Assembly (NCBI GenBank): GCA_024277435.1 | Contig: JAJRVJ010000028.1 | Coordinates: forward strand, 14,114-78,113 | Length of the DNA: 64,000 nucleotides | From: Patescibacteria group bacterium | GTDB taxonomy: Bacteria > Patescibacteriota > Patescibacteriia > UBA9570 | Reading direction: 5' to 3' | In this document: piece by piece, positions 1,840 to 50,631 of the stretch | Position numbering within the stretch: the first letter of the stretch is position 1 | How the letters are laid out: each line of letters starts with the position of its first letter | Made by a program: the position numbers and the translations under genes | Notes under the pieces: generated by a model | Told to the model about the DNA's origin: nothing | Seen by the model: only the letters and a program-made list of their open reading frames with translations | Database searches by the model: none

Positions 1840-4809
1840 ATGTTATCACTATCAAGATACATTCGCATATTAGGGCTATTTTTCACCAGTGTACTATTAA
1901 GCGTGGCTTTAGTTCAGCCAACCATGGCATCAATTGAGAATGATTCTCATATTTCTTCAGCAACCGTAAGTGTTGCTAGTAACGACCTTGGTGAAACTAC
2001 TACGTATACAGTAGAATTCACGAATTCATCGGCTATCAGCTCTGGCGAGGAAGTTAGTATTGATATTTATGCTACAACTGGTTGTTTAGAAGGAGATTGG
2101 TCGGATTGTAATGCTAATTTTGATGTAGCTACCGTTAGTGGAATTTCTGGTACTGTTGCAACTGAAGATTCGGCAGTATCAAGTTATTCATCATCTGATG
2201 ATAAGGGGTATTATGCAATATATACCAACTATAATGATAGCGGGTATTGGGCATCAGATTTGTATAGCGTTACAGCGTACCCAGGAGATGAGTATTCCGA
2301 CTACATGAACACTAAAGAAAAAGTAGAATATAGTGGTAGTTCATTAAGTCAGGATATTGAGCTCACTCGCTCAGCCTACTTTTTTGGAGGAACCATTACG
2401 TATGGTGCGAATAGTACAACAACTATCAGCGCAGAAGGCGAAAAGTATAGTTATTCAGGTGTTGTTCGCAATCGCTGCGCTCCTTGCGAACAATGGCTCC
2501 GGGATTCGCCCGTGTCATCCGTAGTCGCTACGCGACTCCGTACAACACGGGTTATACGCCATTTTACTTCACCGACTTCGTCGGTTTCGTAAAACATCGT
2601 ATAACCCGGAGCCATTATAACAGTTGATAAGGGTAATAATGATATAAGTCTTACAGCGGACCTATTAGGTTCATCTGTAAATTTCACAGTTATTGATACC
2701 AATGGAGATCCGGTAGAAAATGTATCCGCTCAGGTGTGGGGTGAAGATTTCTATCGTGGAGTAAATACCAATGCAGCTGGTGAGGCTACAATTTTTGTTC
2801 CTGCGAACATTAAGTTGGAGGCTAGCGTATGGCACAATCAATATCTCTATGGGGGAGAAACACAATCTCTGGAATTAGAAGCCGATAAATCGATTAATGT
2901 TGAATTCACTGTTGAAGCGCCAGATGCCAGCATTGATGTAACATTGCAACTGGAAGATGGTAGCGTGCCAGATAGTTTATATGGGTATGCCTGGTGTGAA
3001 ACTAATGACTATTCCGAAAATTATGGTAATGATTTCTATAACGGCACTACTACTATTTCAGTATTAGTAGACGATGAAACAGGTAAATTTAAAGGTAATT
3101 GTAGTGTATGGATGTCCGATGATACTTATAGCATTGATAGTCAGCAAGAGGTCTCTGTAGGTAATGGAGAAACTACGGAAGTTACATTTACATTAAAAGA
3201 TCGTGACGCTGCGGTAGTAGTGAACGTTAAGAATTTTTCTACAGGAGAGCTCATTGGCGCTAACGAGGAGATTAATGTGTACTTATGGAATGAAGATAAT
3301 GTGTGGTATGATGCTCGACTATCAGAAAATCCAACAGAAATTCCTGTAACATCAGGTAAAGATTGGTATGGTGGCGTGTGGTCTGAAGATGCTGGACTCA
3401 TTCCATTATGGAGTTTAAATGATAAATCGGTTGCGCCAGATAGCGGTGAAACAGCAACACTTGTTCTTAATGTGCTTGAACAAGATGGTGTTGTTACTAT
3501 GAATGTATCGGGACCAAATAATGAAACGGTTGAATATGGTTGGGCATGGTGTGGTAACTGGAGCGATGAGTTTATCGATTCGCAAAGTGCAGTAGTAGAT
3601 TCTGGAGCAGAAATTATTAACGGTGTAGCTGAAGTGCCATTAGTAGCTGGGTATACATATAACTGTGGGGTTGGTTTGCCACCAGAATATGTAGATCTTG
3701 GCTGGATGTCTCCATTAGAGCAACAGGTTGAGTACACTGATGTGAGCCAAGAGATAAACACTCTTTCATATCAATTCACAGAAGCTGATGCAATCCTAGT
3801 TGGTACAGTGAATGGTACTGATGTTAATCATATCTGGTGTTGGTCCTGGAGCGAGAATGGCGGTCATTCATATACAGAAACTGAGCCAGGTGAAGAATAT
3901 CGATTGAACGTACAAAGTGATCGTAAATGGTTTGCTGGTTGTGATGCTCATCAGGGTAGTACGTGGTATTGGACAGACGAATATGAATTTACCGCTCAGG
4001 AAGGTGAACAATCGCCATGGACAGCCTACGAAGATTCCATTAATGAAACTTTTGATGCTACAGAAAGTAAGGTAATTACAGCGCCAGATAGCACAATGCT
4101 TACAATTCCGTCTAGTACTTTAGCGGATTCTGGTAATGTAACTGTTACTGGAACGCAGGTACGAGAGATGTATCATACTGATGATAATCCGGTAATGCCG
4201 GCTTGGGATTGGGAAGCTACAGATGCTAATGGTCGTCTCATTGAAACATTTAATGGACAAGTTACCATGGAAATTCCATATTCAACTGAAGCGCTAGATG
4301 CAATTGGTACCACAGAAGATGCACTATTCGCCAAATACTACGATACGACATTGGGTGAGTGGCGCTTACCAGATAACTACTCTATTGATAAAGGAAATAA
4401 CATATTAATTGTTAATACCAATCATTTCTCCCAATATGGCATAGTATATAATGGTCGCTTGGCTGAAGCGGTAAGTAAGCCGAAGCAGGCTAAGAAAATT
4501 AATATTAACAAACGCGCTAAAAAACTGCTGAAATATACTGTAGTGTTAAAGGGTGCTTCGGATCGTCCAACTAAGCTACAGCGTCAAATCCGTTGGAAGA
4601 AGAACGGTAAAAAAGGTAAATATACCAAATGGAAACGTAAGAAAAAGAAGAGTATTAACTCAACAAGCAGTAGAACCAAATGGAGATTTACCGAAAAGAA
4701 ACTTCGTAAAGGAACTAAATATCAAATCCGATCTCGTTTCTGCAACTCAGCTGGTTGTGGTAAATGGAAGAGAAGAACGGTTACTACGAAGGGTAGATAC
4801 GTAAGATAG
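1840..4809 (+). pseudogene. Large secreted protein gene interrupted by a 153-bp repeat element. N-terminal fragment 1840-2592, C-terminal fragment 2620(2734)-4809.
   Basis: There is a signal peptide (MLSLSRYIRILGLFFTSVLLSVALVQP). Both ORFs are in the same frame. Removing 2467-2619 (153 bp, 51 codons) joins ...YSGVV to TVDKGNNDISL... without any stop. The element supplies the stops at 2590 and 2602. The last 110 residues are strongly basic (K/R-rich). Confidence 0.6.
2467..2619. repeat. 153-nt structured repeat element (MITE-like), copy 1
   Basis: It is near-identical to 51567-51719: 4 substitutions within the first 40 nt, the remaining about 113 nt identical. It has nested inverted repeats (ATGGCTCCGGG/CCCGGAGCCAT, CCCGTGT/ACACGGG, TTATACG/CGTATAA) and an ACCGAC-TTCG-GTCGGT hairpin. 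Confidence 0.85.
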
Positions 4810-19786: not shown

Positions 19787-22700
19787 ATGAGCAAGGGTAA
19801 GCGTTTCCAACAATTCATTACTAGCCTCACAGTTGGGGTATTAATGCTAACAATGTTGGTACGTCCAATGCCGGCTCGTGCTCAGGGTATTCCGGTAATC
19901 GATGTTACACAGATTTCCCAGGAAACTGCTCAAACAGTAGGTCAGAAGATTCTAAAAGCCCTAGGAAATGCAGCGTTAGGCGCTATTCGTGGATCATTAA
20001 ATGCCTTTCTTCAAAAATTAGCCTACGATACAGCCACATGGATTGCTACTGGTGACCATGGTCAGGATAGTTTATTTGTTACCGAAGATGATGAGACATT
20101 TTGGTCGAATGCTGCTGATGTTGCTGCAGGCGGTGCTATTGAACAAGCTGCTACAGCAGCTGGATTAAATGCAGCTGGTATTTGTAATCCGGGTGGTGAT
20201 TTTGGTATTAATCTTACCCTTGGTTTAGATGTTACAGCACAGCAACCATATAAGCCGGCTTGTACGTTAAGTGAATTAAGTGGTAATTGGGAAGAAGCAT
20301 TTTCCGATCCAAATTTTGGTGACCTAGTGAATATGCAATGGGATTCCACTGCAAATCCACTAGGTGCATCATTAGAAGTGGAAAACTTACAAATTGTTGC
20401 TAGCGCTGAAGCGGTAGATGCAGCAAAATCAGAATCAGCGAGAGAATTTAAACAGGTTACAGAAACTGTTTCTGGCTACGTTAAAACTCCTAGCGCTACT
20501 GTAAAACAACAATTAGCAACCACGCAGTTAGCGCAAAATGAAGCCTGGCAGTTATTGGGCAATCCAGTTGTAGATGCTGTTGCGGTATTCTCTACCACAC
20601 TTACCTCAAAGCTTATGGAGCGCTTAATGACTGGTTTAGCGGATGCCAAAGCCGGTAACGGATTAAGCGCTATTATTTCTGGTGAAGGAACCGGCGCTGC
20701 TTCCGGTAGAGCTGCTGCGCAGGCACGGTTTGCAGAATTGCGCCAGCCAGTATTTGCATCTAGCGGCACCTTTGATATCATCGCTGAATTATCATCTTGT
20801 CCAGATGACGTTGGTTTACGTACTGTAAATAATTGTTCTATTGGTCCAACAACGGCCATTGCTATCCAGGAGGGTTGGACGACTCAAGAATTGGTTGATT
20901 ATTTTGAAGAGGTTGGAAATGATTTTCGTTTTGTCGATGAAACGCTTACCGCGCAAGAGGTAGCGCAAGACGCTGGTATTACCTATCAGGGTATTTTGGT
21001 ATTAAAAAAATACCGTATTATTCCTGTAGGTTGGGATTTAGCCGCCCAATATATTAATGATGATTCCAATCAAGAAAGCAAAACATTATCAGAATTAGTA
21101 GATGAATTTGATAATTGTGATTCGGGTGATGACTATTCCCCATACTGTAAATTAGTTGATCCGTATTGGGTATTAAAAGCGCATGCAAATTTTTGCCAGC
21201 GGGAAGCTCCTGGCCCAGACTTTGCATCAAAAGATAAAATTGATGATGATGTAAATGCTGCCACTCCAGAAGCTATTATTCTTAATCGTTTAAATTACTG
21301 TGCTGATAACCGCGGCTGCATTCAAGAGGAAGAAGAGGGCGTGTGTACTGCTTATGGATATTGTACAGAAGAAGAACGCACCTATCGTTTTGCTGGTGAT
21401 ACGTGCGATGAAGAATATGCAAGTTGTGAAACATTCACCAATGAAGATGATGAAGATATCTCCTACTTGAAGAGTAGTATTAATTACAATGATTGTGCAA
21501 CGGATCCTGGGTGCCAATGGTATTGCTTAAGCACTAATGAATCTGGTTTATATGATTGTGCTAGCCCAACCGAAACCTTCATTACCTGTAACGAAGACTA
21601 TGCAGATAGTGATGCAGTATATAGTTATGATGAGCAAGTATCATGCGCTTGTGAGGTGCAAGATACGTGTATTGTTCGGGCTGGTTCTGATTTAGGTGAC
21701 GATAGTGGTAGTTATGAATATATCGAGGAAGGTGATTCATCAGCATCCGATACGGTGGCTGATGGCATTTATGATTTTTACCAATGTCGAGTATATCCAG
21801 ATGCATCACAGCCAGATGCATATGCTATATGTGACTTAGGCGAAGCTTGTGGAGCTGGTAATCCAAATTATGATGATTCCTTGGGGTATTGTACGTGTAC
21901 AATTGATTACTCTTGTGATGCTGATAGCGGTGATAGCTCTTGTGAAGCAACTGTCACAGGTGATAATGATACCGATGGAGATGGAGTGGATGAAACACTA
22001 ACTATTGGTTGTGATTTAGATGATGAAGATGCTGATTCTTCAGCTGATTCTTGTACATCTGAATACTCAACATACAGTGATGCGCCAGTATGTTCACCAA
22101 GTGGATCTATTAATTGTGGTGACACGTGTATTGTTTCTGACGGCTCAAGTAGCTGTACGAATAGTTTAGGTAATACCTGTGAAGATGGTGGGGACTTAGA
22201 TAGCGATGGTTCCGTTAATGGGGAATGCACATTGGCAGATACCTGTGATATTAGCGATGGTCAGTTTAGTTGTTCTACTGACAACGGTAATTTATGTGTC
22301 ATTGGAACACAAGAAGAAGATCCAGCAGAGGAAAATGACACTATCTATTTTGATGCTAATGTTCAAGAATGTGACAGTGGTGATGCGGGATGTAGTAATT
22401 ATATTCGCACTCTAAGCGATACAAATATTCTACCAAACTCACAATTTAATTATTATGATGGTGATCTTGATGATTCGTCAACGGATTTTGTTGGCTTTTG
22501 CACACATGACGGTAGTGGTTGTTACACTGATGCAGATTGTTATGAAGATGTGAATGGTGATGGCCTAGCTGATACTTCAGACCCAGCAGAGCAGGTTGGT
22601 GAATGTAAGGGTTGGATTCAATCTGACGTTGCCGCGCAAGTAGTTACACAATCTACACTTGGATTAACTCCAATCTACGGAGAAAATGCCTTACAAGTTA

Positions 22701-25700
22701 TTGCTGATGGCGATGCCTCAACAACTGGTAACGTGTATGCAGAAGTTGATACCGGATATACATTAGCCGACCGTACGTTTAGTCTGGCGTATCGCGCATA
22801 TTCAGGAGAAGCTACATTATATGATTGTGATTACAGCTTTTCACTTGGTGGTATCGAAAGTGATGGTACAGAGTATGTATTAGATACCATTACATCTATT
22901 GAAGTTGACGACACAACAACTCTAGATGCGTATGAAAGTGATTGGAATGAGTACTACGGAACATTTACGTTTCCAGAAGATGGTGATTCAACCTATAGTA
23001 GCACTGGCTCTCCAGGAACAACGATTAAGCTGTCTATTCAAAATCATGATGATTGTAGTATTAATATTGATGCCGTTCAATTAGTTGAAGCTGAAGAATA
23101 CGATACGAGCTTCTCAGCTTACAATGATAACAATAGTATATACTTGAACTCTTCAAATAGTTGTGAACCGGAAGATGTTGGTTGTGAATTATATGTTGAA
23201 GATGGTCGCGACGAAGAAGATGGTATTCCGGGTAAGATTACTAATCCAGAATCAGATGTCTGTGTTGATGCTTCGGGTAATTATAACTACGACAATCCAT
23301 CATGTAATCAATGTGATGGTAACCCAGCTGAAGATCAGGATGATAATTATTACGCTGGTTGTGATTTTTACCAAGAAGTAAGCTTAGATCGTACTATTCC
23401 AATTACTACCGATTATGGATCATTATTAAGTACAGAAGAGCGCGACGGTATTATGCAGCGCTACGGTGGACGATGTTCATCCGATCCTTCCGAGAGTTGT
23501 TTCGAAGCCTCAGATTGTTCTACGAGTGGTGATGTATGTGAATTGCAAACATCAATCGTGCCATCTTCTGGCCAACAATGTCCGGCATCAGTAGTTGGCT
23601 GTGAAGAATACACAAATTTAGAAGCAGCTGCAGAAGGTGGTGAATCACTATCGTACTACAGTGAGTTGCAACAATGTGTGAAAGAAAATGACGATGACAC
23701 AGATACCTTCTTTACATTTGAAGGTAGTGATGATGGTGGTATTCAAATTACAGATCATTTCTTAAAGGTTGTTCACGATACAGGAACTGCTAATGATGGT
23801 GCTCCATGTACTACCCTAGATTGGGAAAACGAAAGTTACAATGCTGATTGTCAGGACTTTGTAACTGTTACACCAAATGATTGTGGCCCTAGTGGTGATG
23901 ATGTATATGGATCCGACCTAGATTGTCGCCAATATATTAATGATGAAGGTGATATATTCTATCGTTATGAATCGGAAGTAATTATAGCTACCGATGAATG
24001 TACAACACTGCGTAATACGCTTGATACACGAGTATACTTCGCAGTGCCAGGTGATAGCGCTAGTTGTTCAGCTTCGTACAATGGATGTCGTGAATATAAA
24101 GGTACCGATTCTGGATCGGCGCTAGATGTTGTTGATGAAGAGTTCGATAGTAATTCTACAGAAGAGTGGGTTGGTGCCGATACCACAAGTAATGAAGAGG
24201 TATTACAAGGTGGATATTCCTTAGCTCTACATACAGCAACTAGTTCAGCTTCTAGTGACTTTTCTGGCTATACTGAATATGAAGAAATTACCTACGATTT
24301 ATGGCAAGAGAATGATGGTGAAACCGTTGGTACACTTACTCCTGGTCAATCGTATGTACTATCTTTCTGGGCTAAGGTAACTGATGCAGATGCACAATTA
24401 TTAGCATCTATTGATCCACTAATGTCATCAGTAAATACATATTATTATTTTACTAACGATGGATCAGATGATACTCGAGCAGATTCGGCTATTGATCTTG
24501 ATCCAAACAGTGAAGGGGACTGGCAATTCTATCAACTTGGCCCTATCATTCTTGATGCCAGTGCGGAAGAAGATGATCAGAGCGTTACCTTCAACTTACA
24601 ATTCATGGATACAACTGGTTCAGCTGAAGGGTATATTGATAATATTTTACTTACGGAATCAGATAGTCAGTATCTTATTCAAGATTCCTACAATTATTGT
24701 TTAAATTTTGAGGGTTGTCGAGAGTATAAAGATCGTAATGATAATACACATTACCTAAAATCCTTTGATCGTTTATGTGAAGAGGGTGCCGTTGGTTGTG
24801 AGGCACTTATTAATACATATAATTCCTCCAATCCATTTACCGAAGGCTATAATTTTGATAATGAATATGATGAAGATGATGTGGTTGTACAATACGATCA
24901 GCCAATTACATTAGTATACGACGAGGAAAATGAATGCTCGTCTGAGGTAAGGGCTTGTAAAGCGGTTGGATTGCCAGAGGTAGATGAACGCACCGGATAT
25001 GTTGAGGAGTTTACTACTACATATTTACGTGACCTACCAGATGATTATACATCAACATTATGTGAACAGCCGCAATTAAGCTGCCAAGCCTATGAATCTA
25101 CGTATGATGGAACAGTATATTTCAAAGACCCTGGTGATAAGGTGTGTACGTTAGAGGAGTATACTACGGATGAAGGAACCTTGTTGGGATGGTTTAAGAA
25201 AGATAGTGATGCTACAGAGCCAGATTGTCCTGTACAGTACGATTATGCAGATAAGTCGTATCCATTAGGTGGGTTATGTAACAGTAATAGTGTGAGCTTT
25301 GATGAGGATGGTTCGGTAAATGATAGCTTGATTGGGGAATTATGTAATTCGGATAGTGATTGTTATCCAAGTGGCTGGTCTAGTAGTGATCCGCGACCAC
25401 GCTGTATTTCAAATCCAGAAGATGATGTTGATTTATTTGATGGCAGTGTTCATCAATACGCCATTCGTGCAAATGATGAATTATCACTAGATACTGATGA
25501 TTTTGGTTGGGTTGGTACATGTCCATCAAGTCAATCGGGTTGTACAGAATATATTGATCCGTATAGTCCAAATATCGAAGAAATTACTCGTAACTGGAGC
25601 TTTGAAAATGATGTGCGTAATCAACAGGATACGTATTATGCTAATGAAGAAACCGCTGATGGATTCCCAGACTACTGGTACGTAAATAGCAATGCTGGTG

Positions 25701-27517
25701 AGGAAGGTACTGGTGAATATGAAGATGCTGATGAGGATGGTTTTGCTGATGATGAAATCATGGTAAATACCACATTGGATCTAGATAATGATGGTACAGC
25801 TGATTTCCCAGCTGAGTGTCATTCATATTTACCAACCGAAGATACATATCCCGATGCATATGTGTATGCAACCTATGGTGCATCTACGAACACAGCTGCG
25901 ATGACTAACTCTAATGATTATTCAGATGTTGATGTAACTCCGGTGGATGGAGATTCTGCTCTATTTATTGAAGAATGTGCATTAGAGAATAATAAGCTCT
26001 TTTCATACGAGCGCGATAAATTATATACATTGTCTGCCTTTGTAAAATTACCTCTTATTCCTGAAGATGATCGTGAAACAATTTTACCAAACTATGAATT
26101 CAGCATTGGCTTACGTTACTATGATGAAGACTTTAATGAGGTAGAAGTAGATGATAGTGATCAAATGTTTATTGTGGCCGACCATGCCACTATCGAGCCT
26201 ACTTCATACGCTGTAGATGATTCTGATAATCAAAGTGAATGGTATAAATGGCAAGGGAATATCGGTATAGGATCAACCGTAGAATTTCCAGATCCAGATA
26301 CCAATGGTAATTGTAATGGTGGAGTAGGTCCATTTATAGATTTCAGTAGAACAAGTTGTGAAAATGGAGGTGGAGAATGGTATGAAATAAAATATGCATC
26401 TCCATTTGTGGCTAATCATTATAGTAGTCCAATCTGGTTTGATGCAGTATCGTTTAAGGAAAACGACAAGTATTATTATCTTGACTACACCGTTGATGGA
26501 ACTTCCGAGCATGATTCTGAATTTGATTTTACTACTTGTGAAGGCACTGATGGGGAAGGTGAAATTACATCCGATGGTGGTTGCGTAGGATTCCGTGACA
26601 CCACATATGATTCACAAATTATCTCGCAAGATAGCATTGAATGTGCAACCTGTTTATTAACGCCAAATTCAGATAGTTGCCGTAATGTGGTAGACGCCTG
26701 TGATACGAATGCAGTTATTAAAGTAAAACGAGATCGCGTATGTAGTGAGTGGCTGGCTTGTGAAACTGCTGCTGTAGTTACGGATGAAGAGGGTAATGAA
26801 GCAAGCCAATGCTTCTCAATTGGTCGTTGCGTTGGCCTTGATGAAGATGGAAATTGTATCGATTGGAAATTAAAACCAAGTACCGACGAGTTAACCACTC
26901 TTACCGATCTTCATTACACAACTGCTGGTGGTGATAATGATGAACTAAGTGCCATCCGTAACTTAACCGGATATAGTAAGGTAGGTATGACATGGCTTGA
27001 TACTCAGGTATGTGATGGTGGTGAATCAAGCGGTGAATCTTGTGAATACGATACCGATTGTGGACCAATTTATGGTAGTTGTTCTGGTGATGAATGTGTG
27101 AGTGGAGATAATCTGGGAGATATTGGTTGTCAGGCTGATGCGGATGATAATGGTGTGGCGGAATCTTGTGGTGAAACGGGTACGTACTATGAATGTAGAG
27201 CTCCAATTGAAGTGCAGGGTTATTTTCCATATGGCTGGATGGTAGAAATTGGTGGTGATGGCGCTGAGGCGGAGAATGACTTTATCGAGCACCGTTCTTT
27301 CGAGAATCTGTATTGTGCTGGTGAAGATGCCGATCCTACACAGGCTTGTATAGTGAATGCGAGTGGCTTCGGTGAAACTAGTCCTAGCCCTTCGGCGGGA
27401 AATTGCTTCCGTACCGAATTTGAAGATCGATTAACCAATGACGATACCGATGTTGGAACTACTGATAATCCATATACATATGTAGAGGGAACTGATCTTG
27501 ATGATTATCAAGGTTAA
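19787..27517 (+). CDS. Giant secreted cysteine-rich acidic protein, part 1 (2576 codons)
   Basis: Signal peptide MSKGKRFQQFITSLTVGVLMLTMLVRPMPARAQG. Very long open frame rich in Cys, Asp, Gly, Thr and Ser. It ends at a TAA that is in frame with the downstream ORF. Confidence 0.8.
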   Translation: MSKGKRFQQFITSLTVGVLMLTMLVRPMPARAQGIPVIDVTQISQETAQTVGQKILKALGNAALGAIRGSLNAFLQKLAYDTATWIATGDHGQDSLFVTEDDETFWSNAADVAAGGAIEQAATAAGLNAAGICNPGGDFGINLTLGLDVTAQQPYKPACTLSELSGNWEEAFSDPNFGDLVNMQWDSTANPLGASLEVENLQIVASAEAVDAAKSESAREFKQVTETVSGYVKTPSATVKQQLATTQLAQNEAWQLLGNPVVDAVAVFSTTLTSKLMERLMTGLADAKAGNGLSAIISGEGTGAASGRAAAQARFAELRQPVFASSGTFDIIAELSSCPDDVGLRTVNNCSIGPTTAIAIQEGWTTQELVDYFEEVGNDFRFVDETLTAQEVAQDAGITYQGILVLKKYRIIPVGWDLAAQYINDDSNQESKTLSELVDEFDNCDSGDDYSPYCKLVDPYWVLKAHANFCQREAPGPDFASKDKIDDDVNAATPEAIILNRLNYCADNRGCIQEEEEGVCTAYGYCTEEERTYRFAGDTCDEEYASCETFTNEDDEDISYLKSSINYNDCATDPGCQWYCLSTNESGLYDCASPTETFITCNEDYADSDAVYSYDEQVSCACEVQDTCIVRAGSDLGDDSGSYEYIEEGDSSASDTVADGIYDFYQCRVYPDASQPDAYAICDLGEACGAGNPNYDDSLGYCTCTIDYSCDADSGDSSCEATVTGDNDTDGDGVDETLTIGCDLDDEDADSSADSCTSEYSTYSDAPVCSPSGSINCGDTCIVSDGSSSCTNSLGNTCEDGGDLDSDGSVNGECTLADTCDISDGQFSCSTDNGNLCVIGTQEEDPAEENDTIYFDANVQECDSGDAGCSNYIRTLSDTNILPNSQFNYYDGDLDDSSTDFVGFCTHDGSGCYTDADCYEDVNGDGLADTSDPAEQVGECKGWIQSDVAAQVVTQSTLGLTPIYGENALQVIADGDASTTGNVYAEVDTGYTLADRTFSLAYRAYSGEATLYDCDYSFSLGGIESDGTEYVLDTITSIEVDDTTTLDAYESDWNEYYGTFTFPEDGDSTYSSTGSPGTTIKLSIQNHDDCSINIDAVQLVEAEEYDTSFSAYNDNNSIYLNSSNSCEPEDVGCELYVEDGRDEEDGIPGKITNPESDVCVDASGNYNYDNPSCNQCDGNPAEDQDDNYYAGCDFYQEVSLDRTIPITTDYGSLLSTEERDGIMQRYGGRCSSDPSESCFEASDCSTSGDVCELQTSIVPSSGQQCPASVVGCEEYTNLEAAAEGGESLSYYSELQQCVKENDDDTDTFFTFEGSDDGGIQITDHFLKVVHDTGTANDGAPCTTLDWENESYNADCQDFVTVTPNDCGPSGDDVYGSDLDCRQYINDEGDIFYRYESEVIIATDECTTLRNTLDTRVYFAVPGDSASCSASYNGCREYKGTDSGSALDVVDEEFDSNSTEEWVGADTTSNEEVLQGGYSLALHTATSSASSDFSGYTEYEEITYDLWQENDGETVGTLTPGQSYVLSFWAKVTDADAQLLASIDPLMSSVNTYYYFTNDGSDDTRADSAIDLDPNSEGDWQFYQLGPIILDASAEEDDQSVTFNLQFMDTTGSAEGYIDNILLTESDSQYLIQDSYNYCLNFEGCREYKDRNDNTHYLKSFDRLCEEGAVGCEALINTYNSSNPFTEGYNFDNEYDEDDVVVQYDQPITLVYDEENECSSEVRACKAVGLPEVDERTGYVEEFTTTYLRDLPDDYTSTLCEQPQLSCQAYESTYDGTVYFKDPGDKVCTLEEYTTDEGTLLGWFKKDSDATEPDCPVQYDYADKSYPLGGLCNSNSVSFDEDGSVNDSLIGELCNSDSDCYPSGWSSSDPRPRCISNPEDDVDLFDGSVHQYAIRANDELSLDTDDFGWVGTCPSSQSGCTEYIDPYSPNIEEITRNWSFENDVRNQQDTYYANEETADGFPDYWYVNSNAGEEGTGEYEDADEDGFADDEIMVNTTLDLDNDGTADFPAECHSYLPTEDTYPDAYVYATYGASTNTAAMTNSNDYSDVDVTPVDGDSALFIEECALENNKLFSYERDKLYTLSAFVKLPLIPEDDRETILPNYEFSIGLRYYDEDFNEVEVDDSDQMFIVADHATIEPTSYAVDDSDNQSEWYKWQGNIGIGSTVEFPDPDTNGNCNGGVGPFIDFSRTSCENGGGEWYEIKYASPFVANHYSSPIWFDAVSFKENDKYYYLDYTVDGTSEHDSEFDFTTCEGTDGEGEITSDGGCVGFRDTTYDSQIISQDSIECATCLLTPNSDSCRNVVDACDTNAVIKVKRDRVCSEWLACETAAVVTDEEGNEASQCFSIGRCVGLDEDGNCIDWKLKPSTDELTTLTDLHYTTAGGDNDELSAIRNLTGYSKVGMTWLDTQVCDGGESSGESCEYDTDCGPIYGSCSGDECVSGDNLGDIGCQADADDNGVAESCGETGTYYECRAPIEVQGYFPYGWMVEIGGDGAEAENDFIEHRSFENLYCAGEDADPTQACIVNASGFGETSPSPSAGNCFRTEFEDRLTNDDTDVGTTDNPYTYVEGTDLDDYQG

Positions 27518-27880
27518 TATTGGGGTGGAGCATCAGCTGTATATGAAGAGCCAAGTTATTATTGTCCAAATACTCCAGAATTTGGTTTATGGCCATTTGG
27601 TGGATTTGAAGATGGTACGGATACCGAATATACTCAACATGGTTGGCAACCAATTGGTGATACTTCTGTATTTGTAACACAATACGATTATAATTTTAAA
27701 ACTGTTCTTAATGAATTTTCAGGGCGTGATACCAGTGAATTCACTTGTGATGAAGATTGCCCTGAAATTGACGTAAACAATGTATTACAAGTTGAGCCAG
27801 TTGTTACTACAGGTGGTGATACAGGTGGCGTACAATATGATTTCTACGACACCTTTACGGATCCATCTACTGAATTAGCC

Positions 27881-30800
27881 TTGAGTTTTGATGCTCGTTT
27901 TGATGGTAACTTTGAAGAGATAGGTGAAAGTGATGACCCAAGTACAGTGTCGGCGTGCTTAAAACACAATAATATGGTATTTATTGGTGATTGTGATTCT
28001 AGCTCTCAGTGTACGAACGATTCTAGTATTTCTTGTACGGATGATCTAGATGGTGATGGCCGTGATTTTGAATGTGATGTTGCAGTTTCCCGCCAAGACT
28101 GTTGGTCGGAAGGGCGAAGTTCGGCGGACATTGTATTCATTATGGATACTTCCAGTTCTACTTCTACGTACTTAGAAAATACACGTACATCTATTCCTAA
28201 TCTAGTAGCAGAGTTAGAGCGTCGTGAAATAGCGGCGAAATATGCGGTGATTGATATGGATAGTGATGGCAGTTCTGCAATGACAACATTAGAATTACAA
28301 GTGACATCAGACGTTGAGGATATTTCAAATACCTTTGATAGTGATAGCTCTGTATGTTCTGGCGTAGATTTTTATAATACTGGCGTAAGTTGGCGTAATG
28401 ATGACCCATGTCTAAACTCTTCTGGTGCTAGCGTTGATCCGTATGCTGCTATTGCAGACGTACTTGAAAATAATATTCAGGCATATAACTCGAATAGTGA
28501 GGGCGGTACGTTATCATCCGCTGATCTTGCTATGCGCGGAAGTGCATTACCAATTATTATTCTTGTTACAGATACAGGTGATGAGTATAGCAGCAACATT
28601 TATGATGAAGCATACGTATTAGATTTATTTTACGAAACGGAAGCAATAATTATTGCAGTAACTCCAGATACGTTATATAGTTCGTATGGCGATGCTGCTT
28701 CTTACTATAGTGGAATTACAAGTGTATCTGGCGGTGAAGTAATTACAGCAATTAACGATGCAGATTGGACAGCCGATGGATCGGTAATTGATAGCCTTGT
28801 AACTATTATTGAAGAAGAGGTGGATCAGTTCCAGTTTGATAATATCATGCAGAACTATGCACTTGGTCCTATTACACTAGATAATCGATCACTTGAGGAT
28901 GGTGAATTAGGGGCAGCGGAAGGTAAGTTAATTACTTCAGAATTAGAACTTCGTGCATCTGATAATTCTGTATTTCAAATCGATAACGTATCATTAAAAC
29001 CTGTATTATTAGCTTCTCAAGAAGTGGAAGTAGATCCTATCGGTCGTACCTGTCGTGCATGGCCAGCTAGTGATTCATTGCAGTGTGAATATACCGATAC
29101 AAGTGGAGCACAGTATCAAGGTTGGCGTGGATATTGTTTAGAGTCTGATCCATTCAACCGTCGTCGTTGTATTACGTGGTGGCCACTGGATTACTTATCT
29201 GGTGAAGCATCCATTACTAAACGTGAATCAGCTGGATACGATGGTCGCACTGAATTACAGTATTGTTTAGTAGCTAAAGGATATGAAGATCCTGGGTTTT
29301 GTGATCAAGCCGAGTGGGATGATAGCGGTGATACCATCACTTATGGCGATGGCCAGATATGTACTGACGATTCTCAATGTTCATCTGGTACATGCGTGAA
29401 GAGTGTGCGTCACACCGTGGATGATCCAACAAGTTCATCTTCTAAGCCAAACTTTTCTACGCCACTTACTACAAATGCCCCTGAAGATGGCTATACATAT
29501 CGCATGCGTTGGCAAACTAACGATCCAAACGCCATGGAGCATGGAACATTGTATGAGCAATATTTAGCCAACGGTTTTGATCTTGATGATTTGGTAGAGT
29601 CCTTCTTCTTAAGTCCATTCACACTGCTAGATAGTAGCGATGATATTAAAGTAGATGCGGCTACTGTAGTGCGTTTGCCAGCTAGTGAAGTATTACGTAA
29701 TGTACATGTGAGTGAAATTGAATCGATTATTTTCAATACCGGTTCCGCAGGATTTGGCGATGAATCCGTCAGTAACGGACCGGAATGGACATATTGGGGG
29801 CAATTAGGTAAAACAGGGGATACCGGCCTTACTGGTGCTACAGCTGACGTTACAGAAACGTATGTAGATGGTGACGGTAATGCAATTAATCCGGAAGATA
29901 ATGATAACGAATGTGGTACCAATGGGTTTGATTGTAATAAATATGGTAATTGGGTAATTTCTGATTTTGCAGAAGGTAGTATTAATCAAAATGATGATGG
30001 GTCTCAGAAGCCATGGGAAGATTGTTATGCGTATCGTGCAAATGATGGATTGGATATTGATACAATGGGAATTGGTTGTAGAGTATGGGGTGCTTATGAT
30101 AGTAATTATGAACTAGATTACTATGATGATGCAGAAAATTTTGATTACTATGATACTAGTGGAAATTCAACTGAGATGGATATTGTATATACCTGGGCTT
30201 GGAGTAATTTTGATTATGGCTTAGGTACGGCTGATGATGCTGATGCAACTGATTATAATTGTAATACAGGTAGCTCAACAAATGAAGATAAGTATCCATA
30301 CCGCTGGGAGAATTTGGAGGACAGAGAAGATCTATGGTTTGATTCGCCATGTATTGGCGATGCTGTAAAACAGGTGATGGGAGTGGAAGGTTCTGGTAGC
30401 CAGAACCCATGGAAGCGTTTAGGTAATGCTGATAATCTTAATAACTGTATTGAATCATACGAAGGTGAATTTAGTTCTGAGGAGGTCAAGATATGTGTAG
30501 AGGAAGATCCTGGCGATAACTGGTCGGCCTGGACAAGCTGGACAGAACGTTTAGCTATTGAAGATGAAGACTGGGGAGCGTTTGAACAGCATAGTTCTGG
30601 CGGTAATAATATTTTCTCGCTATGGATTGATGTAAATAGCGATGGATATATTTCTGCCGTATATTATCTTATCTATACTGGAGCTATGGGTACGTACGAT
30701 TTTGCTACTTCAGTGGATGCTGCAAACTTCAACTTAACCTTCGATAACGACATGAGCCTTGATTTTCAATTACGTGAAAGTTGTGCGCTAGTAGTAGAGG

Positions 30801-32011
30801 CAGTGGATTCATCTGGTGATAACGTGGCTTGGGCAGAACGAGCTAGTACAGGTAGTGATTATAATATGGATCATGCCGCAGATGATAGTGGTTACGAGTA
30901 TTCCACAGAATATGATACGTATGGTGCAATTGCTCCAATTCCATCTACCGATAGCATATTCTTATATGATACGTTGTTAGAAGCACCAGATAATATCTAT
31001 AAGTGGGGTAGCTATAGTTATCAACCATTTGTATTTGTGGATTATGCTGATACTTTCACCGCTGGTAGACCACTATCGTGTATTGGTGAGTGTGAGCAAA
31101 AATGGTGTGTAAGTGATTTTGGTGAAGGTTCCTTTTATGATCAAGGTGATGGAATCTGTTCAACGAGTGATGATTGTAGCGATGGCGGAGTATGTGTAGG
31201 TGTAGGCCGTGAGGAGATTAGCGGTGAAGGCTTGAGTAGTGTAAGTAGTTATGAGGACCAAATAGTGCAAACCGCTGTTGCAGGCCGCGATCGCTTAAAG
31301 CATGTGTTTGCGGATGTAGTGGGTAGTTATTATCGACCAGCGTATCGGGTAGATTCAGCTTCTCGCATGTATAATACTGATACTATCTATGGAGCAGATG
31401 GTTACTGGTTGAATGATCCAACAGATTCTTCCTCGGGAAATATCTTTGATGACATGGTAGTATGTGATGGCAATGAGCGTGATGATAACGATAAAGGGCT
31501 TGATGCAGAATATTGTGGTGTGCGCCCAGTAATCGATGATCCTGAAGATCCTATTGCCTTCGATGATCAAACTGCTTATACGGAAAATAAATATACCATT
31601 ACTAATGGTAAAACCGTTACGCTTAGCTTTACTTCAGATGTAGATCCAGAACAAAAGCCATTGAAATCAATCTATATCGATTGGGGAGATGGTAAAACAA
31701 CTAGCGATCCATGGGATGCTGATACCACAACGCATTATTATACACATTCATATCAATGTGGCCCAGAGTACCAGCAGTATACTGAAGAATATTCAGCAGC
31801 TGATGGTGGCACCTGTGTATATAAGCCAAAGATTACCGTTGTAGATAACTGGTTATGGTGCTCTGGTAATATCACCGATGCAACAGCATTGCCTACTAGT
31901 GGTAATCAGTATCGGTCGGCGGAGAATGTGGGTAATGCACTAGAAAGCTGTAATAGTTGGGATACACCTAATTTTGATATCGAAGTAGTATCTGGTAGTG
32001 GTTCAAGCTAA
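27881..32011 (+). CDS. Giant secreted protein, part 2 (vWA-domain-containing), probably continuous with part 1
   Basis: The frame is open from 27518, directly after the TAA of part 1, with no ATG before the TTG at 27881. vWA MIDAS motif DIVFIMDTSSS at about 28130-28160 and IILVTDTGDEY. Same amino acid composition as part 1. Confidence 0.75.
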   Translation: MSFDARFDGNFEEIGESDDPSTVSACLKHNNMVFIGDCDSSSQCTNDSSISCTDDLDGDGRDFECDVAVSRQDCWSEGRSSADIVFIMDTSSSTSTYLENTRTSIPNLVAELERREIAAKYAVIDMDSDGSSAMTTLELQVTSDVEDISNTFDSDSSVCSGVDFYNTGVSWRNDDPCLNSSGASVDPYAAIADVLENNIQAYNSNSEGGTLSSADLAMRGSALPIIILVTDTGDEYSSNIYDEAYVLDLFYETEAIIIAVTPDTLYSSYGDAASYYSGITSVSGGEVITAINDADWTADGSVIDSLVTIIEEEVDQFQFDNIMQNYALGPITLDNRSLEDGELGAAEGKLITSELELRASDNSVFQIDNVSLKPVLLASQEVEVDPIGRTCRAWPASDSLQCEYTDTSGAQYQGWRGYCLESDPFNRRRCITWWPLDYLSGEASITKRESAGYDGRTELQYCLVAKGYEDPGFCDQAEWDDSGDTITYGDGQICTDDSQCSSGTCVKSVRHTVDDPTSSSSKPNFSTPLTTNAPEDGYTYRMRWQTNDPNAMEHGTLYEQYLANGFDLDDLVESFFLSPFTLLDSSDDIKVDAATVVRLPASEVLRNVHVSEIESIIFNTGSAGFGDESVSNGPEWTYWGQLGKTGDTGLTGATADVTETYVDGDGNAINPEDNDNECGTNGFDCNKYGNWVISDFAEGSINQNDDGSQKPWEDCYAYRANDGLDIDTMGIGCRVWGAYDSNYELDYYDDAENFDYYDTSGNSTEMDIVYTWAWSNFDYGLGTADDADATDYNCNTGSSTNEDKYPYRWENLEDREDLWFDSPCIGDAVKQVMGVEGSGSQNPWKRLGNADNLNNCIESYEGEFSSEEVKICVEEDPGDNWSAWTSWTERLAIEDEDWGAFEQHSSGGNNIFSLWIDVNSDGYISAVYYLIYTGAMGTYDFATSVDAANFNLTFDNDMSLDFQLRESCALVVEAVDSSGDNVAWAERASTGSDYNMDHAADDSGYEYSTEYDTYGAIAPIPSTDSIFLYDTLLEAPDNIYKWGSYSYQPFVFVDYADTFTAGRPLSCIGECEQKWCVSDFGEGSFYDQGDGICSTSDDCSDGGVCVGVGREEISGEGLSSVSSYEDQIVQTAVAGRDRLKHVFADVVGSYYRPAYRVDSASRMYNTDTIYGADGYWLNDPTDSSSGNIFDDMVVCDGNERDDNDKGLDAEYCGVRPVIDDPEDPIAFDDQTAYTENKYTITNGKTVTLSFTSDVDPEQKPLKSIYIDWGDGKTTSDPWDADTTTHYYTHSYQCGPEYQQYTEEYSAADGGTCVYKPKITVVDNWLWCSGNITDATALPTSGNQYRSAENVGNALESCNSWDTPNFDIEVVSGSGSS

Positions 32012-36677: not shown

Positions 36678-37241
36678 ATGCAGCAATTTGTTGTACCACA
36701 ATTTATTGAGGTGGAGTCCAAGGTAATTGGTCCAATTTCGGTACGGCAATTTATCATTCTTCTTGTTACCGCGGGTATCATTTATATATGGTTTGAATTA
36801 TTTAGCTTAGTTGTTTTTGCTATACTAGGAGTGGTGACGTTAGCAATTGGTGGTGTATTTGCTTTTGCAAAGGTAAATAGTCAGTCATTCCATGTATTTC
36901 TATTGAGTTTTATTCAAACAATGAAGCGACCAAAGCTTTCTGTTTGGCGAAGAGAGCATCCGATAAAGGCAATTGAAAAGAAGGGTCGTAAAGATAAGAA
37001 GGATAAGAAGGACGATACAGAATTTACACCAAAGCCTGATGTATCGCAATCACATCTAGCAGAGCTGGCACTTATCATGGATACTGAAGGACAGTACTCT
37101 CCACAAGACATAGAGCAATTACGCAAGGAGCAGCACGCAGAGGTACCAGCTCCAGTGCAATTACCAAAGGATGACCTTGTAGATCTTAATGCTGAGCAAC
37201 CAAGCCCTCAAAATTCTAATGAACGAGAACAGCAACAATAA
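36678..37241 (+). CDS. PrgI/VirB3-like small two-transmembrane protein
   Basis: VPQFIEVESKVIGPISVRQFIILLVTAGIIYIWF followed by a second transmembrane segment matches the PrgI (PF12666)/VirB3-like pattern. It sits immediately upstream of VirB4. Confidence 0.5.
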   Translation: MQQFVVPQFIEVESKVIGPISVRQFIILLVTAGIIYIWFELFSLVVFAILGVVTLAIGGVFAFAKVNSQSFHVFLLSFIQTMKRPKLSVWRREHPIKAIEKKGRKDKKDKKDDTEFTPKPDVSQSHLAELALIMDTEGQYSPQDIEQLRKEQHAEVPAPVQLPKDDLVDLNAEQPSPQNSNEREQQQ

Positions 37242-37258
37242 TTGTTGTATAACTGTAT

Positions 37259-38011
37259 ATGGCTAAAAAGAAAAAGCAAACAACTTCAAAAAAGGCAAAG
37301 GCCGAGGAGCTTAAAGCTCGGCAAGCTGGTGGCGGAATGAAAAAGAAGCGTAAGTCTGCACCAAATTCTCAGAGTAATATGCCTATTGCTGAGGTTAAGC
37401 AAGATACGGTTCTTTTAAAGGATGGTACGTTGCGATCTGTATTAGAAGTATCTTCAATTAACTTTGCGTTGAAGAGTGCAGATGAACAACAAGCTATTAT
37501 TCAAGGATATATTCAGTTTTTGAATTCTATTGATTTTGAACTACAAATTGTCATTCAGTCCCGCAAGCTTGATATTTCAAAATATCTTGAACAGCTCGAT
37601 AAATTAGCTAAGGAGCAAACGAACGAACTATTAAAAGTGCAAACTGTTGAATATCGTCAATATATCGATGAGTTAGTAACCTTATCGGAGATTATGGAGA
37701 AACGTTTTTTTGTAGTAGTTCCGTATTCACCATTTTCTAAAAAACGTAAAAGTTTTTTTACTCGAGCGCAAGAAGTATTATTTCCCAGCCGTGTAATTAA
37801 ATTGGCCGATAATAAATTTGCAAAATATAAGAAAGAACTCGATCGTAGAGTGGGAATTACCGCTGGGGGATTATCTTCAATTGGTTTAAAAATTGATATG
37901 TTAAGCACACAACGTTTAATTGAGTTATACTATCAAATATACAACCCAACTCGTGGAACTAGTAAAAAATTACCAGACCTAAATGATTTGCGAGTTGAGC
38001 AAGCAGGATAA
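37259..38011 (+). CDS. VirB4/TrbE/PrgJ N-terminal domain (CagE_TrbE_VirB-like)
   Basis: VLLKDGTLRSVLEVSSINFALKSADEQQAIIQGYIQFLNSIDFELQIVIQSR matches the VirB4 N-terminal motif pattern. It ends at TAA 38009-38011, in the same frame as the next ORF. Confidence 0.55.
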   Translation: MAKKKKQTTSKKAKAEELKARQAGGGMKKKRKSAPNSQSNMPIAEVKQDTVLLKDGTLRSVLEVSSINFALKSADEQQAIIQGYIQFLNSIDFELQIVIQSRKLDISKYLEQLDKLAKEQTNELLKVQTVEYRQYIDELVTLSEIMEKRFFVVVPYSPFSKKRKSFFTRAQEVLFPSRVIKLADNKFAKYKKELDRRVGITAGGLSSIGLKIDMLSTQRLIELYYQIYNPTRGTSKKLPDLNDLRVEQAG

Positions 38012-38014
38012 TAT

Positions 38015-40585: not shown

Positions 40586-41623
40586 ATGCGGCCATCACTA
40601 AAACGCATTATATTTACAGTTACTTCAGGCCTCGGTTTTGTTGTGCCGTCGTTAGTGTTGGCAGCAAAGCGTATTGATGAGATTAGTTACACGCTAGAGC
40701 AACCATTTGGTAATGTTTCAACTGTAACAAGTTTTGGCCAGTATTTGCAGCTGGCATACGAATACACCGCTGGACTCATTGGCATTATTGCTGTAGTAGT
40801 AATTATGGCTGGCGGCTTAATGTGGGTTTCGGCTGCTGGTAACGAGCAAAAAATTAGTACTGCTAAAGAAATTATCATTGGTGCCGTTACCGCTGTTGTG
40901 ATTATTGTACTTTCGTATGCAATATTAGTATTTATTAATCCAAGATTGGTTCAGAATACATTTTCTTTAGAGCGTATTAGTTTCGTGCCATCAGATGTAG
41001 ATATTAACACACTCCCACTTTGTACATCTAAAAATTTTACTGGACAAACCTGTGTAGGTGAGGATTCTCGTGACATTGAGTGTGATTTATTGCAGTGCGG
41101 AGAGATAGGTACGCTACCAAGCGTGGGAGAGTGTCGTGGTGCTGGTAATGAATGTGGATCTGGCAGCTACAAGTGCTACCCTGATTCAGATATTCCGCGC
41201 GAAGATATGCAGTGTCAATTAGATGCCTGTGGTACTTGGATTAGTAGTTGCTATCAAAAATATATGAAAGGCGCTGCCGATGAGACTAATGAGACAGCGT
41301 ATAATAACTGCATATGTCAGTACTACGAAAGCGAAGCTATGGATTATTTTGGCGGTGTCAACGCATACGATGCAACTCGCGCAGGAATTTTTGAAGATAT
41401 GTGTAATGAAACAATAGAAAATATTGATTGGAGCACATATATTGGTAATGATAGCGCTATAGCTGCTAAGTATACAGGCGCTACTACTGGACAAGCTTCT
41501 GTATTAGGATTGAATTGTGGCTTAGGATGTAATTTTGAAAAAGGTGAAGAAACCTATAGAGATACGGATGAGTTTGGCGTAACAATAACAACAACGCTTG
41601 ACACTGTTACTTGCGTACCATAA
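40586..41623 (+). CDS. Secreted fusion protein: VirB2/TrbC-like pilin module plus Cys-rich C-terminal domain (paralog A)
   Basis: Signal peptide, then helix-loop-helix hydrophobic hairpin AGLIGIIAVVVIMAGGLMWVSAAGNEQKISTAKEIIIGAVTAVVIIVLSYAILVFINP (VirB2-like topology), then about 200 aa with about 17 Cys. Confidence 0.5.
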   Translation: MRPSLKRIIFTVTSGLGFVVPSLVLAAKRIDEISYTLEQPFGNVSTVTSFGQYLQLAYEYTAGLIGIIAVVVIMAGGLMWVSAAGNEQKISTAKEIIIGAVTAVVIIVLSYAILVFINPRLVQNTFSLERISFVPSDVDINTLPLCTSKNFTGQTCVGEDSRDIECDLLQCGEIGTLPSVGECRGAGNECGSGSYKCYPDSDIPREDMQCQLDACGTWISSCYQKYMKGAADETNETAYNNCICQYYESEAMDYFGGVNAYDATRAGIFEDMCNETIENIDWSTYIGNDSAIAAKYTGATTGQASVLGLNCGLGCNFEKGEETYRDTDEFGVTITTTLDTVTCVP

Positions 41624-50376: not shown

Positions 50377-50467
50377 GGAGAGGTGGCTGAGTGGTTGAAA
50401 GCGGCAGATTGCTAATCTGTTATACGGGTTTTTTCCCGTATCGAGGGTTCAAATCCCTTCCTCTCCT
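50377..50467 (+). tRNA. tRNA-Ser (anticodon GCT)
   Basis: Acceptor GGAGAGG/CCTCTCC, anticodon stem GCAGA/TCTGT with loop TTGCTAA, long variable arm TACGGG-TTTTTT-CCCGTA, T-loop GTTCAAATCC. Confidence 0.75.
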
Positions 50468-50540
50468 CCCGTGCACTATATATGACGGAACTTCTTACTT
50501 AATGAGTAGGTAAGTAGTTGTTAGGTAGCAGAATACATCC

Positions 50541-50627: not shown

Positions 50628-50631
50628 CATA

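Follow-up and report, generated by a model that had tools for sequence, protein, structure and literature searches.

A miniature structured element at dif-like sites of a Patescibacteria recombinase and its probable movement by site-specific recombination

Integration by means of a borrowed tyrosine recombinase is known so far for phages and islands of kilobase size, the integrative mobile elements exploiting Xer (IMEX), and for integron cassettes, but not for DNA of the size of a miniature inverted-repeat transposable element (MITE). Integron cassettes also insert at secondary sites inside genes. In the case of the phage CTXφ, Xer acts on the folded single-stranded DNA and replication completes the event (PMC4246890). 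In other systems, a lone Xer-type gene adjoins its own arm-spacer-arm site and forms a module with it, as xerS does with difSL (PMC5357621) and xerH with difH. The DNA analyzed here is a stretch of 64,000 nucleotides (nt) from a Patescibacteria group bacterium (contig JAJRVJ010000028.1, positions 14,114 to 78,113; hereafter the window). It holds two copies of a 153-nt structured element, one inside a large secreted-protein gene and the other beside the gene of a tyrosine recombinase.

The element is best explained as a non-autonomous, non-coding integrative element which is moved by an Xer/IntI-like recombinase at a dif-like site, and we give this reading a probability of about 0.65. It would spread by site-specific recombination of folded DNA, as a MITE-sized non-coding parasite of a recombinase of the candidate phyla radiation (CPR). 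By analogy with CTXφ it probably moves as folded single-stranded DNA, which is less certain than the explanation as a whole; the adjacent recombinase would be the enzyme, and only one strand would be exchanged. No description of the element or of a CPR Xer/dif module was found in Rfam or in the searchable literature, and the sole related item concerns candidate phyla, to which a 'Cand' Xer-like subgroup is restricted (10.1101/542381).

Direct comparison shows the two near-identical copies which an earlier note on this DNA had announced. Copy 1 lies at 2467-2619, as stated there; the matching stretch of copy 2 is 51568-51720 (offset 49101), one nucleotide away from the 51567-51719 of the note, and the T at 2466 and 51567 is also common to both. 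The four substitutions near the 5' end are at 2477 (G in copy 1, A in copy 2), 2489 (A, C), 2494 (T, C) and 2504 (A, C), and the 115 nt on the 3' side are identical, again as noted earlier. The comparison with related loci described below places the inserted segments, of 153 nt each, 5 nt to the left of these coordinates, and within the family-defined junctions six positions differ between the copies, all of them in or beside two parts of the fold, hairpin H and strand P1'. From here on, the dif-like sites, the junctions and the order of parts in the element are read on the integrase-sense strand, which is the minus strand of the window, unless the host gene is concerned, and a slash in a sequence marks the junction.

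2462 to 2614, minus strand: element copy 1, with family-defined junctions, antisense inside the surface-protein gene
51563 to 51715, minus strand: element copy 2, at the recombinase-proximal dif-like site; hairpin H degraded, with 3 mismatches in 10 bp
1840 to 4809, plus strand: host gene of copy 1, coding for a large secreted protein with a signal-peptide-like N-terminus, now split into open reading frames (ORFs) 1840-2592 and 2734-4809

Copy 1 reads 5'-TGGCTCCGGG...GATTGCGAACAA-3' on the minus strand, and the G+C content of the element is 53%, compared to 40% for the window. A third copy is present on another NCBI contig of 35,695 bp, where it was seen through a protein cluster. The spurious minus-strand ORF of copy 2 shares a 90% cluster with a 53-residue protein of that contig, which reads through the same element end (...GCGAACAA) and differs by one residue, hence the assignment as a third copy. 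The plus-strand frame of the element has zero protein matches, those of the minus-strand frame are the element's own copies and repetitive false positives, and among billions of proteins neither open frame has relatives other than these copies. Therefore, the element is not a coding repeat. When the terminal stems ATGGCTCCGGG...CCCGGAGCCAT were sought across GTDB, with one genome taken for each species, the outcome was a chance match in a Spirochaete ATPase gene, and nothing was found in viral contigs or in JGI metagenomes. The exact sequence of the element is thus rare, and the family was reached only via the integrase.

The earlier note had called the element MITE-like and recommended looking for target-site duplications. 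There is none at either copy: copy 1 lies between TTATAA/ and /CACCTG, copy 2 between CATATAA/ and /CTAGTG, and AA alone is shared. Terminal inverted repeats are also missing, since the stem P1 is terminal at one end only and the other end is the 32-nt hairpin H. The element is therefore not a MITE in the usual sense.

Removal of the 153 nt restores an uninterrupted ORF of 938 residues plus stop at 1840-4809, in keeping with the claim that the element splits this gene. The element supplies two TAA stops in the host frame (2590-2592 and 2602-2604), and of the two present ORFs, 2734-4809 is annotated at NCBI as a protein of 691 residues. The four closest orthologues (P0002-P0005, 36-57% identity, PF13620, one of them from Candidatus Kerfeldbacteria) all align across the insertion site without a gap, and the syntenic locus L002 (NYN, big protein, S15) shows no trace of the element. 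Because these orthologues and L002 show the empty site, the element is an insertion. The empty site in the gene, with 2461 joined to 2615, would read GGTG/TTATAACAG; the pre-insertion sequence is inferred to be ...GGT G/TT ATA ACA..., coding for GVITV, which fits the orthologue alignment as well as the GVVTV of the earlier note. That note had also stressed an insertion exactly in frame. The in-frame length is a coincidence, since the lengths of related elements fall in all three residues modulo 3, and copy 1 is the sole family member found inside a long ORF. As a separate observation on this gene, the interrupted protein is without two segments (of about 100 and 150 residues) found in all four homologues P0002-P0005 (alignment A2), the second of which ends 8 residues before the insertion site.

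The target becomes apparent when loci coding for homologues of the recombinase are compared. Eighty metagenomic integrase loci were gathered, 73 of which have enough upstream DNA, and a clear dif-like site is found in 69 of these 73. Its distance upstream of the integrase start is fixed, at 75-77 nt for the window and the closest group and at about 100-150 nt for the other loci. The consensus, from 51 sites with no hairpin against the left arm, is ATTTCacATAA/CTCGTTTTTATgCGAAC. Its left arm is identical to the arm bound by XerC in several proteobacterial dif sites, such as that of H. influenzae, ATTTCGCATAA (PMC2731167), and the right arm contains the mirror TATGCGAA. In the window, this site is separated into two parts by copy 2:

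51544 to 51562, minus strand: dif-like central region and right arm beside the integrase, C-TAGTGTT-TATCTAAATTT
51716 to 51726, minus strand: dif-like left arm, displaced beyond copy 2, AGGTCATATAA/

When copy 2 is removed, the site reads AGGTCATATAA/CTAGTGTTTATCTAAATTT, which matches the consensus at 21 of 30 positions and beats all other 30-mers of the window anchored at AA/C (n=2052); copy 2 occupies the home site. The target of copy 1, AACTGTTATAA/CACCTGAA (TTATAA/C), matches at 15 of 30 positions, in the top 3% of the AA/C sites of the window, and can be read as an off-target event at a weak pseudo-site. Near copy 2, the window showed no further dif-like site in a distal position; its GC skew tracks gene strand.

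In about 17 of the 73 loci (about a quarter), a GC-rich element of 150-290 nt abuts the site and is inserted exactly at AA/C, and the left arm of the site is the 3' arm of a hairpin. These elements have the architecture of the minus strand of the window element: P1, arm B, arm A, P1' and the hairpin H ending in ...AA, followed by the C and the rest of the site. The sequence of P1 differs widely from one locus to another (TGGCTCCGGG, TGGGCGCGGG, CGTACGCGGA or TGTGCAGC), while its pairing is kept. A sequence-blind scan was run for a 10-nt hairpin arm which ends in AA and is immediately preceded by a GC-rich 9-mer with its complement 50-260 nt upstream, leaving the flanks free. It recovered about 21 true elements in the loci and the window, compared to 1 match in 539 kb of shuffled DNA. 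Every true element has the left arm (T/A)ATTTCnnnnAA/ on one side and the C, central region and right arm on the other. Conservation of these flanks, on the two sides, extends over about 30 nt, and the right-hand flank is either integrase-proximal or of a second type, CGTTAGGCATATCYGAAGTTT. Copy 1 was recovered in the strict scan with 0/0 mismatches and the flanks CAACTGTTATAA/ and /CACCTGAA. A relaxed structural scan of the window was uninformative, with about 537 matches in shuffled sequence.

Near-identical copies occur within single loci, two in each of L003, L044 and L055 and three in L070, and identical copies stand against different left arms in L055, L058 and L059. In L049, positions 749-1121 are taken up by two different elements, one of 150 and one of 223 nt, which lie head-to-tail at the integrase-proximal site, and the end of the first is the left arm for the second, an arrangement as expected if integrations had followed one another. 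Unoccupied second-type sites are common 0.3-4.4 kb upstream of the integrase and, apart from one doubtful minus-strand match, have one orientation. The insertion and mobility proposed in the earlier note are borne out by the empty site in the orthologues, the third copy elsewhere and this multi-copy family in other CPR genomes.

A possible relative was seen in L083-L086 (Candidatus Kerfeldbacteria CG15 and relatives), where the proximal site is unoccupied (region about 100-560 nt upstream of the integrase). About 500 nt upstream, a called ORF of 83 residues lies in the DNA between an element-like start, TTTTATATAA/CGTCCGCGC ATATGCAAAG..., and the motif CCCATTGTGC. This may be a decayed or larger relative of the element.

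The predicted fold is a three-way junction with a small extra hairpin. It has an energy of -67.1 kcal/mol on the plus strand (z = -8.2) and of -78.6 kcal/mol on the minus strand (z = -8.1), which is the more stable one. All the stems listed in the earlier note are present. The stem ATTTTAC with GTAAAAC, said there to need G·U pairing, does so on the minus strand only; on the plus strand it has an A·C mismatch. The parts of copy 1, all belonging to the minus-strand element, are as follows.

2462 to 2493, minus strand: hairpin H, arms 2462-2471 and 2484-2493, TTGTTCGCAA paired with TTGCGAACAA, perfect over 10 bp, loop 2472-2483
2494 to 2503, minus strand: one strand of stem P1, TGGCTCCGGG on the plus strand, partner of 2605-2614
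2605 to 2614, minus strand: other strand of P1, CCCGGAGCCA on the plus strand; on the minus strand it opens the element right after the junction
2509 to 2551, minus strand: arm A, CCCGTGT...ACACGGG around an AGTCGC/GCGACT hairpin
2552 to 2604, minus strand: arm B, TTATACG...CGTATAA around TTTTAC/GTAAAA and ACCGAC-TTCG-GTCGGT

With its 3' arm (GATTGCGAACAA on the minus strand), which stops at the junction AA/, hairpin H imitates the left arm of the dif-like site. When the ends of the element are joined, the circle junction would read ...GATTGCGAACAA/TGGCTCCGGG...; the 5' strand of P1 then directly follows the 3' arm of H, and the two pair with P1' and the 5' arm of H, which likewise adjoin each other. 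Several other arm-like motifs are present in the element, and at the boundary of arms B and A the minus strand reads GCGTATAA-CCCGTG-TTGTACGG, a dif-like arm-spacer-arm. The loop of H (2472-2483 and 51573-51584) is a purine-rich GGAGCGnAGCGA on the sense strand, conserved across the family. This loop motif is absent from chromosomal arms. Single A·G mismatches recur (16 cases) and, together with the GGAGCGnAGCGA loop, may be recognition features.

The structure is under selection, as had been suspected from the sequence of the window alone. The helix formed by H and P1 across the junction has 20-24 of its 24 positions paired in every element. Over 16 sequences it shows changes on both sides at 20 of 24 pairs, and 91% of its cells are paired, compared to 64% after shuffling and about 40% when the partner is slid; these covariation figures are inflated, the scan having imposed pairing at 19 of the 24 positions, and one alignment row, L049c, is an antisense artefact of the tandem pair. 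Evidence independent of the scan comes from the three unconstrained positions of P1 and from arms A and B, which fold in every element. The stem of arm B, with compensatory changes, was also recovered by RNAalifold on a plain MAFFT alignment. In the consensus obtained in this way for ten elements, P1 is misaligned and arm A is paired with H, a consequence of the repeated arm motifs.

The two strands are not equivalent. On the integrase-sense strand, G·T pairs number 82 and A·C single mismatches 4, compared to 24 and 21 on the antisense strand, and the sense strand was the more stable in the 11 elements tested out of 11. Hence it is one particular strand which folds in the functional state.

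The recombinase beside copy 2 and its surroundings are the following.

50671 to 51484, minus strand: Xer/IntI-like tyrosine recombinase, 270 residues after one G is dropped from the G7 run 51019-51025
50377 to 50628, plus strand: two tRNA-Ser genes, GCT (50377-50469) and TGA (50541-50628), convergent with the 3' end of the integrase
51504 to 51520, minus strand: conserved motif TTGTATGTTATACAAAC, recognized by eye across the 80 loci, at about 20-35 nt before the start of the integrase

The gene is intact but for the extra G, which splits it into two ORFs. Removal of this G yields a canonical 19-residue motif; the extra base could be a sequencing error, the mark of a real pseudogene or a slippage site. 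The repaired protein has the domains Phage_int_SAM_4 and Phage_integrase, and falls just under the NCBIfam cut-offs for integron integrases and archaeal XerA (219.7 bits for TIGR02249, with a cut-off of 265). Its best structural relative is VchIntIA (2A3V), aligned in two pieces with no counterpart to IntI residues ~211-241, which we take to be the I2 segment; XerA comes next and aligns as a single stretch. Judged by this alignment, the recombinase is without the segment specific to IntI. The family is large (6796 matches at E<1e-30). The top 120 matches are proteins of about 270 residues, 78-84% identical and, for the best of them, 80-84%, from Kerfeldbacteria, Vogelbacteria, Moraniibacteria, Paceibacterota and others; one close match is labelled Actinomycetota. 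No relative of the integrase was found in viral contigs. The identity of 78-84% across CPR classes, compared to 57% for the best homologue of the surface protein, points to either extreme constraint or frequent horizontal spread.

The position of copy 2 next to tandem tRNA-Ser genes and a tyrosine recombinase was correctly described in the earlier note, and the recombinase turned out to be the key to the family. The spacing of 46 nt given there is 47 nt to TTG 51520, the start of the mechanical ORF; the start shared with homologues is ATG 51484. The motif near the integrase start, (C)TTGTATGTTATRCAAAC, is found in nearly all homologous loci and contains a TTATGC-type arm. It may be a promoter, an operator or a second or accessory binding site.

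The insertion is base-exact between the AA which ends the left arm (ATTTCnnnnAA) and the C which opens the central region, and the element reads 5'-TGG...(P1, arm B, arm A, P1')...H...ACAA-3' on the sense strand. For a tyrosine recombinase bound to the arm, AA/C is the predicted cutting point on that strand. The proposed mechanism starts with the ends of the element joined: H and P1 would then form one continuous helix, and the folded single strand would present a duplex arm with the cutting point AA/T. The recombinase would cut the sense strand after ...AA, both in the folded element and in the target (...AA/C), and exchange that strand only. Replication would then resolve and complete the insertion, by analogy with integron attC and with the recombination of CTXφ attP(+) at dif. 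In the loci, the site is indeed regenerated on the integrase side. According to this scheme, copy 2 would be an insertion at the home site, and copy 1 the product of the same reaction at a pseudo-site, truncating the surface-protein gene.

By analogy, the element would work most like a CTXφ-type IMEX, and it also resembles an empty integron cassette. As in the IMEX, no recombinase is encoded (153 nt, with open frames that have no other relatives), the target is a dif-like site at the boundary of arm and central region (about 21 elements, with 21 of 30 positions for the site of copy 2), and the folded single strand is predicted to rebuild a duplex binding arm. A complete site is restored on one side upon integration, and tandem arrays can thereby form (L049, L070). 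The exactness of the junctions and the lack of duplicated flanks would be explained by the exchange of one strand and subsequent replication. The differences are in size (150-290 nt and non-coding, compared to phages and islands of several kb), in the partner (one recombinase of about 270 residues beside the site, instead of XerC and XerD), in the hairpin, which rebuilds a single arm, and in the host (CPR instead of Vibrio or Neisseria). In addition, the target of the element is only putatively a chromosomal dimer-resolution site.

The resemblance to integrons begins with the enzyme, whose best structural and NCBIfam relatives are integron integrases, and with the site, directly upstream of the integrase gene. 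Some related loci have arrays of sites in the same orientation which bound modules with genes pointing away from the integrase. The presumed substrate is a strand-specific folded DNA, the junction is of the form ...RYYYAA/C, and some central regions are GTTAGGC. However, the I2 segment specific to IntI is lacking in the CPR protein, and the element has its motifs in the opposite order: the 5' arm carries GTT... and the 3' arm ...AAC, at the stem base and not beside the spacer. The attC site, R''(RYYYAAC)-L''...L'-R'(GTTRRRY), has two stem boxes, whereas the stem of the element has one box and a three-way junction is added. The module borders are plain double-stranded dif-like sites, and the modules may hold several genes. 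The wrong order of motifs and the missing I2 segment exclude a canonical integron attC. Regarding the XerS/difSL and XerH/difH modules, no miniature structured elements are reported to be inserted there, and the CPR protein is closer to IntI and XerA.

Several points weigh against the explanation by folded-DNA recombination. The I2 region was reportedly acquired by integron integrases for single-strand recombination (PMC7790495), and the present recombinase does without it. The link between this enzyme and the element is circumstantial, drawn from co-location and from the mimicry of an arm. The hairpin rebuilds one binding arm only; in the folded circle, a right-arm-like motif comes no nearer than 10-11 bp, instead of 6-8 bp. 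Three copies are known for this genome; the hairpin of copy 2, with its three mismatches, may make that copy immobile; and the target of copy 1, at 15 of 30, is matched equally well by 3% of the AA/C sites in the window. L002 also encodes an XerC/D-type protein of 308 residues, and the dimer-resolution role of the dif-like site is putative. The inflation of the covariation figures and the artefactual row L049c are to be counted here as well.

The earlier note saw in the structure a selection at the RNA level. The element would then primarily be an RNA gene or a regulatory element (a small RNA, a riboregulator or a guide RNA associated with the recombinase), transcribed in the direction of the integrase, with copies spread secondarily. 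The strong structure, the pairing kept through compensatory changes, the G·U-type pairs on one strand, which are a classical RNA signature, and the position just upstream of a gene in the same orientation are all in its favour, but folded DNA also tolerates G·T pairs, and none of the observations calls for an RNA. The ends coincide to the base with the predicted DNA cleavage point and a stem copies a protein-binding arm, a junction geometry which suits a folded-DNA recombination substrate. The strand of copy 1 which folds runs antisense to its host gene, and only about a quarter of the integrase loci carry the element, so that the recombinase does not need it. No promoter-like site above chance was found. 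The recommended Rfam search returned no match at the gathering score for the window, and no credible one around copy 1 (E<=10) or in six related loci (E<=0.1). A primarily RNA-level function is thus unlikely. Movement by a transposase encoded elsewhere, either an IS200/IS605 Y1 HUH enzyme acting on a palindrome-associated transposable element (PATE) or an IS110/IS1111 enzyme, with a preference for dif-like or hairpin targets, appears slightly less plausible still. There is no target duplication, the insertion is 3' of a short motif (..AA/) which is also found at the element's own end, hairpins and strand-specific folding are as in IS200/IS605, and one related array, in L055, has an IS110-like transposase. 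IS1111-type elements target integron attC sites. The targets, though, are whole arm-spacer-arm sites with conserved right halves and not a tetranucleotide, the hairpin stem reproduces the arm of a recombinase site, and the element systematically adjoins a tyrosine recombinase gene. No transposase was found in the window: there is no Y1 HUH transposase (TnpA) among 38 ORFs scanned, and no transposase, reverse transcriptase or second recombinase among 30 further ORFs. The lack of terminal inverted repeats and target-site duplication excludes MITEs of the DDE type and distinguishes the element from classical MITEs. The likeness to PATE and to the repetitive extragenic palindromic elements with their tyrosine transposases (REP/RAYT) concerns small non-coding hairpin elements, inserted 3' of a short motif without target duplication, and a presumed strand-specific single-strand chemistry; those systems use HUH Y1 enzymes and tetra- or pentanucleotide targets, whereas the element has full tyrosine-recombinase sites and a copied arm, and no HUH gene is among the scanned ORFs.

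One may also imagine that the element is not mobile by itself and is an accessory or architectural part of the site, like the accessory DNA at cer and psi, or the recombination site of larger modules, copy 1 being a rare illegitimate event. In related loci, copies do lie at the borders of 0.7-3 kb modules bounded by directly repeated dif-like sites, and the element holds several arm-like motifs. On the contrary, the two halves of a complete site surround each element, and unoccupied sites of this type are common, so that the element is an insertion into sites and not the site itself; the tandem pair of L049, the identical elements against different left arms and the fact that copy 1 brings 153 nt alone, with no module, point in the same direction and make this view improbable, to about the same degree as a foreign transposase. 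An assembly artefact, in which a repeat was mis-joined into the gene, can be considered because the source is a metagenome-assembled genome (MAG; NCBI contig of 188,709 bp) and because the homopolymer frameshift of the neighbouring integrase could be a sequencing error. It is very improbable: the junctions are base-exact for the family, in the expected AA/C context, the gene is in frame on both sides, and with six positions different from copy 2, copy 1 is not a collapsed duplicate. A diversity-generating retroelement with template and variable repeats was rejected on the basis of the differences between the copies (G/A, A/C, T/C, A/C), the absence of a reverse transcriptase in the window and the stops in the in-gene copy. 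Inteins, group I or II introns, coding insertions of the Rickettsia palindromic element type and translational bypass were set aside on grounds of size, stops, missing enzymes and the family evidence. Rickettsia palindromic elements and in-frame MITEs are similar in being palindromic repeats, with a length that is a multiple of three, in a protein-coding gene; those are translated within the protein, whereas the element brings two stops in the host frame and its family has no length bias.

If the explanation by site-specific recombination of folded DNA holds, a MITE-sized non-coding element would move by means of a borrowed tyrosine recombinase. A site and a likely activity would be assigned to a recombinase family among the most conserved CPR proteins. 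This enzyme stands between Xer and integron integrases in sequence and would thus bear on single-strand recombination and on the evolution of integrons. The element and the dif-like arrays would also mark hotspots of gene gain in uncultured genomes, and would explain some of the 'split' genes of CPR MAGs.

Arrays of dif-like sites, ATTTCnnnnAAC-GTTAGGC-ATATCYGAAGTTT, directly repeated in one orientation and all upstream of the integrase, were observed in L003, L006, L020, L039, L044, L053-L056, L060, L062, L070 and L076 (integrase on the plus strand). They bound modules of 0.7-3.4 kb whose genes are directed away from the integrase, and the cargo includes methyltransferase- or restriction-like genes and an IS110-like transposase. 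In the window, the proximal site alone was found. The layout may be integron-like or 'dif-module'-like, and an integron-like platform may exist. A tentative extension, rather doubtful at present, is a widespread, integron-like gene-capture platform of the CPR consisting of an I2-less intermediate of Xer and IntI, a dif-like 'attI' just upstream of its gene and arrays of equally oriented sites around accessory modules, restriction-modification systems among them, on which the elements would be a new class of single-stranded DNA parasites or portable recombination sites, hopping into genes and perhaps excising. The split surface-protein gene would then be a reversible switch.

The tRNA genes downstream of the integrase do not appear to mark the border of an island. 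No repeat of a tRNA 3' end was found, and of the 80 related loci only 8 have tRNA genes placed in this way; these facts led to the rejection of the tRNA-Ser/integrase pair as such a border. Genes for tRNA (Leu, Ser, Ala+Ile) lie downstream of the integrase and convergent with it in L005, L007, L008, L019, L027 and L030.

Elsewhere in the window, giant ORFs of 2576 and 1376 residues (19787-32011 and 36678-39913) consist in part of repeated GATGGTGATGG (D-G-D-G-like) units and adjoin a PrgI/TraG-P-loop cluster, which is type IV secretion-like. Two neighbouring ORFs without a Pfam match, probably paralogous genes, contain the two units of a direct repeat of 209 nt (40734-40942 and 43921-44129, 76% identity).

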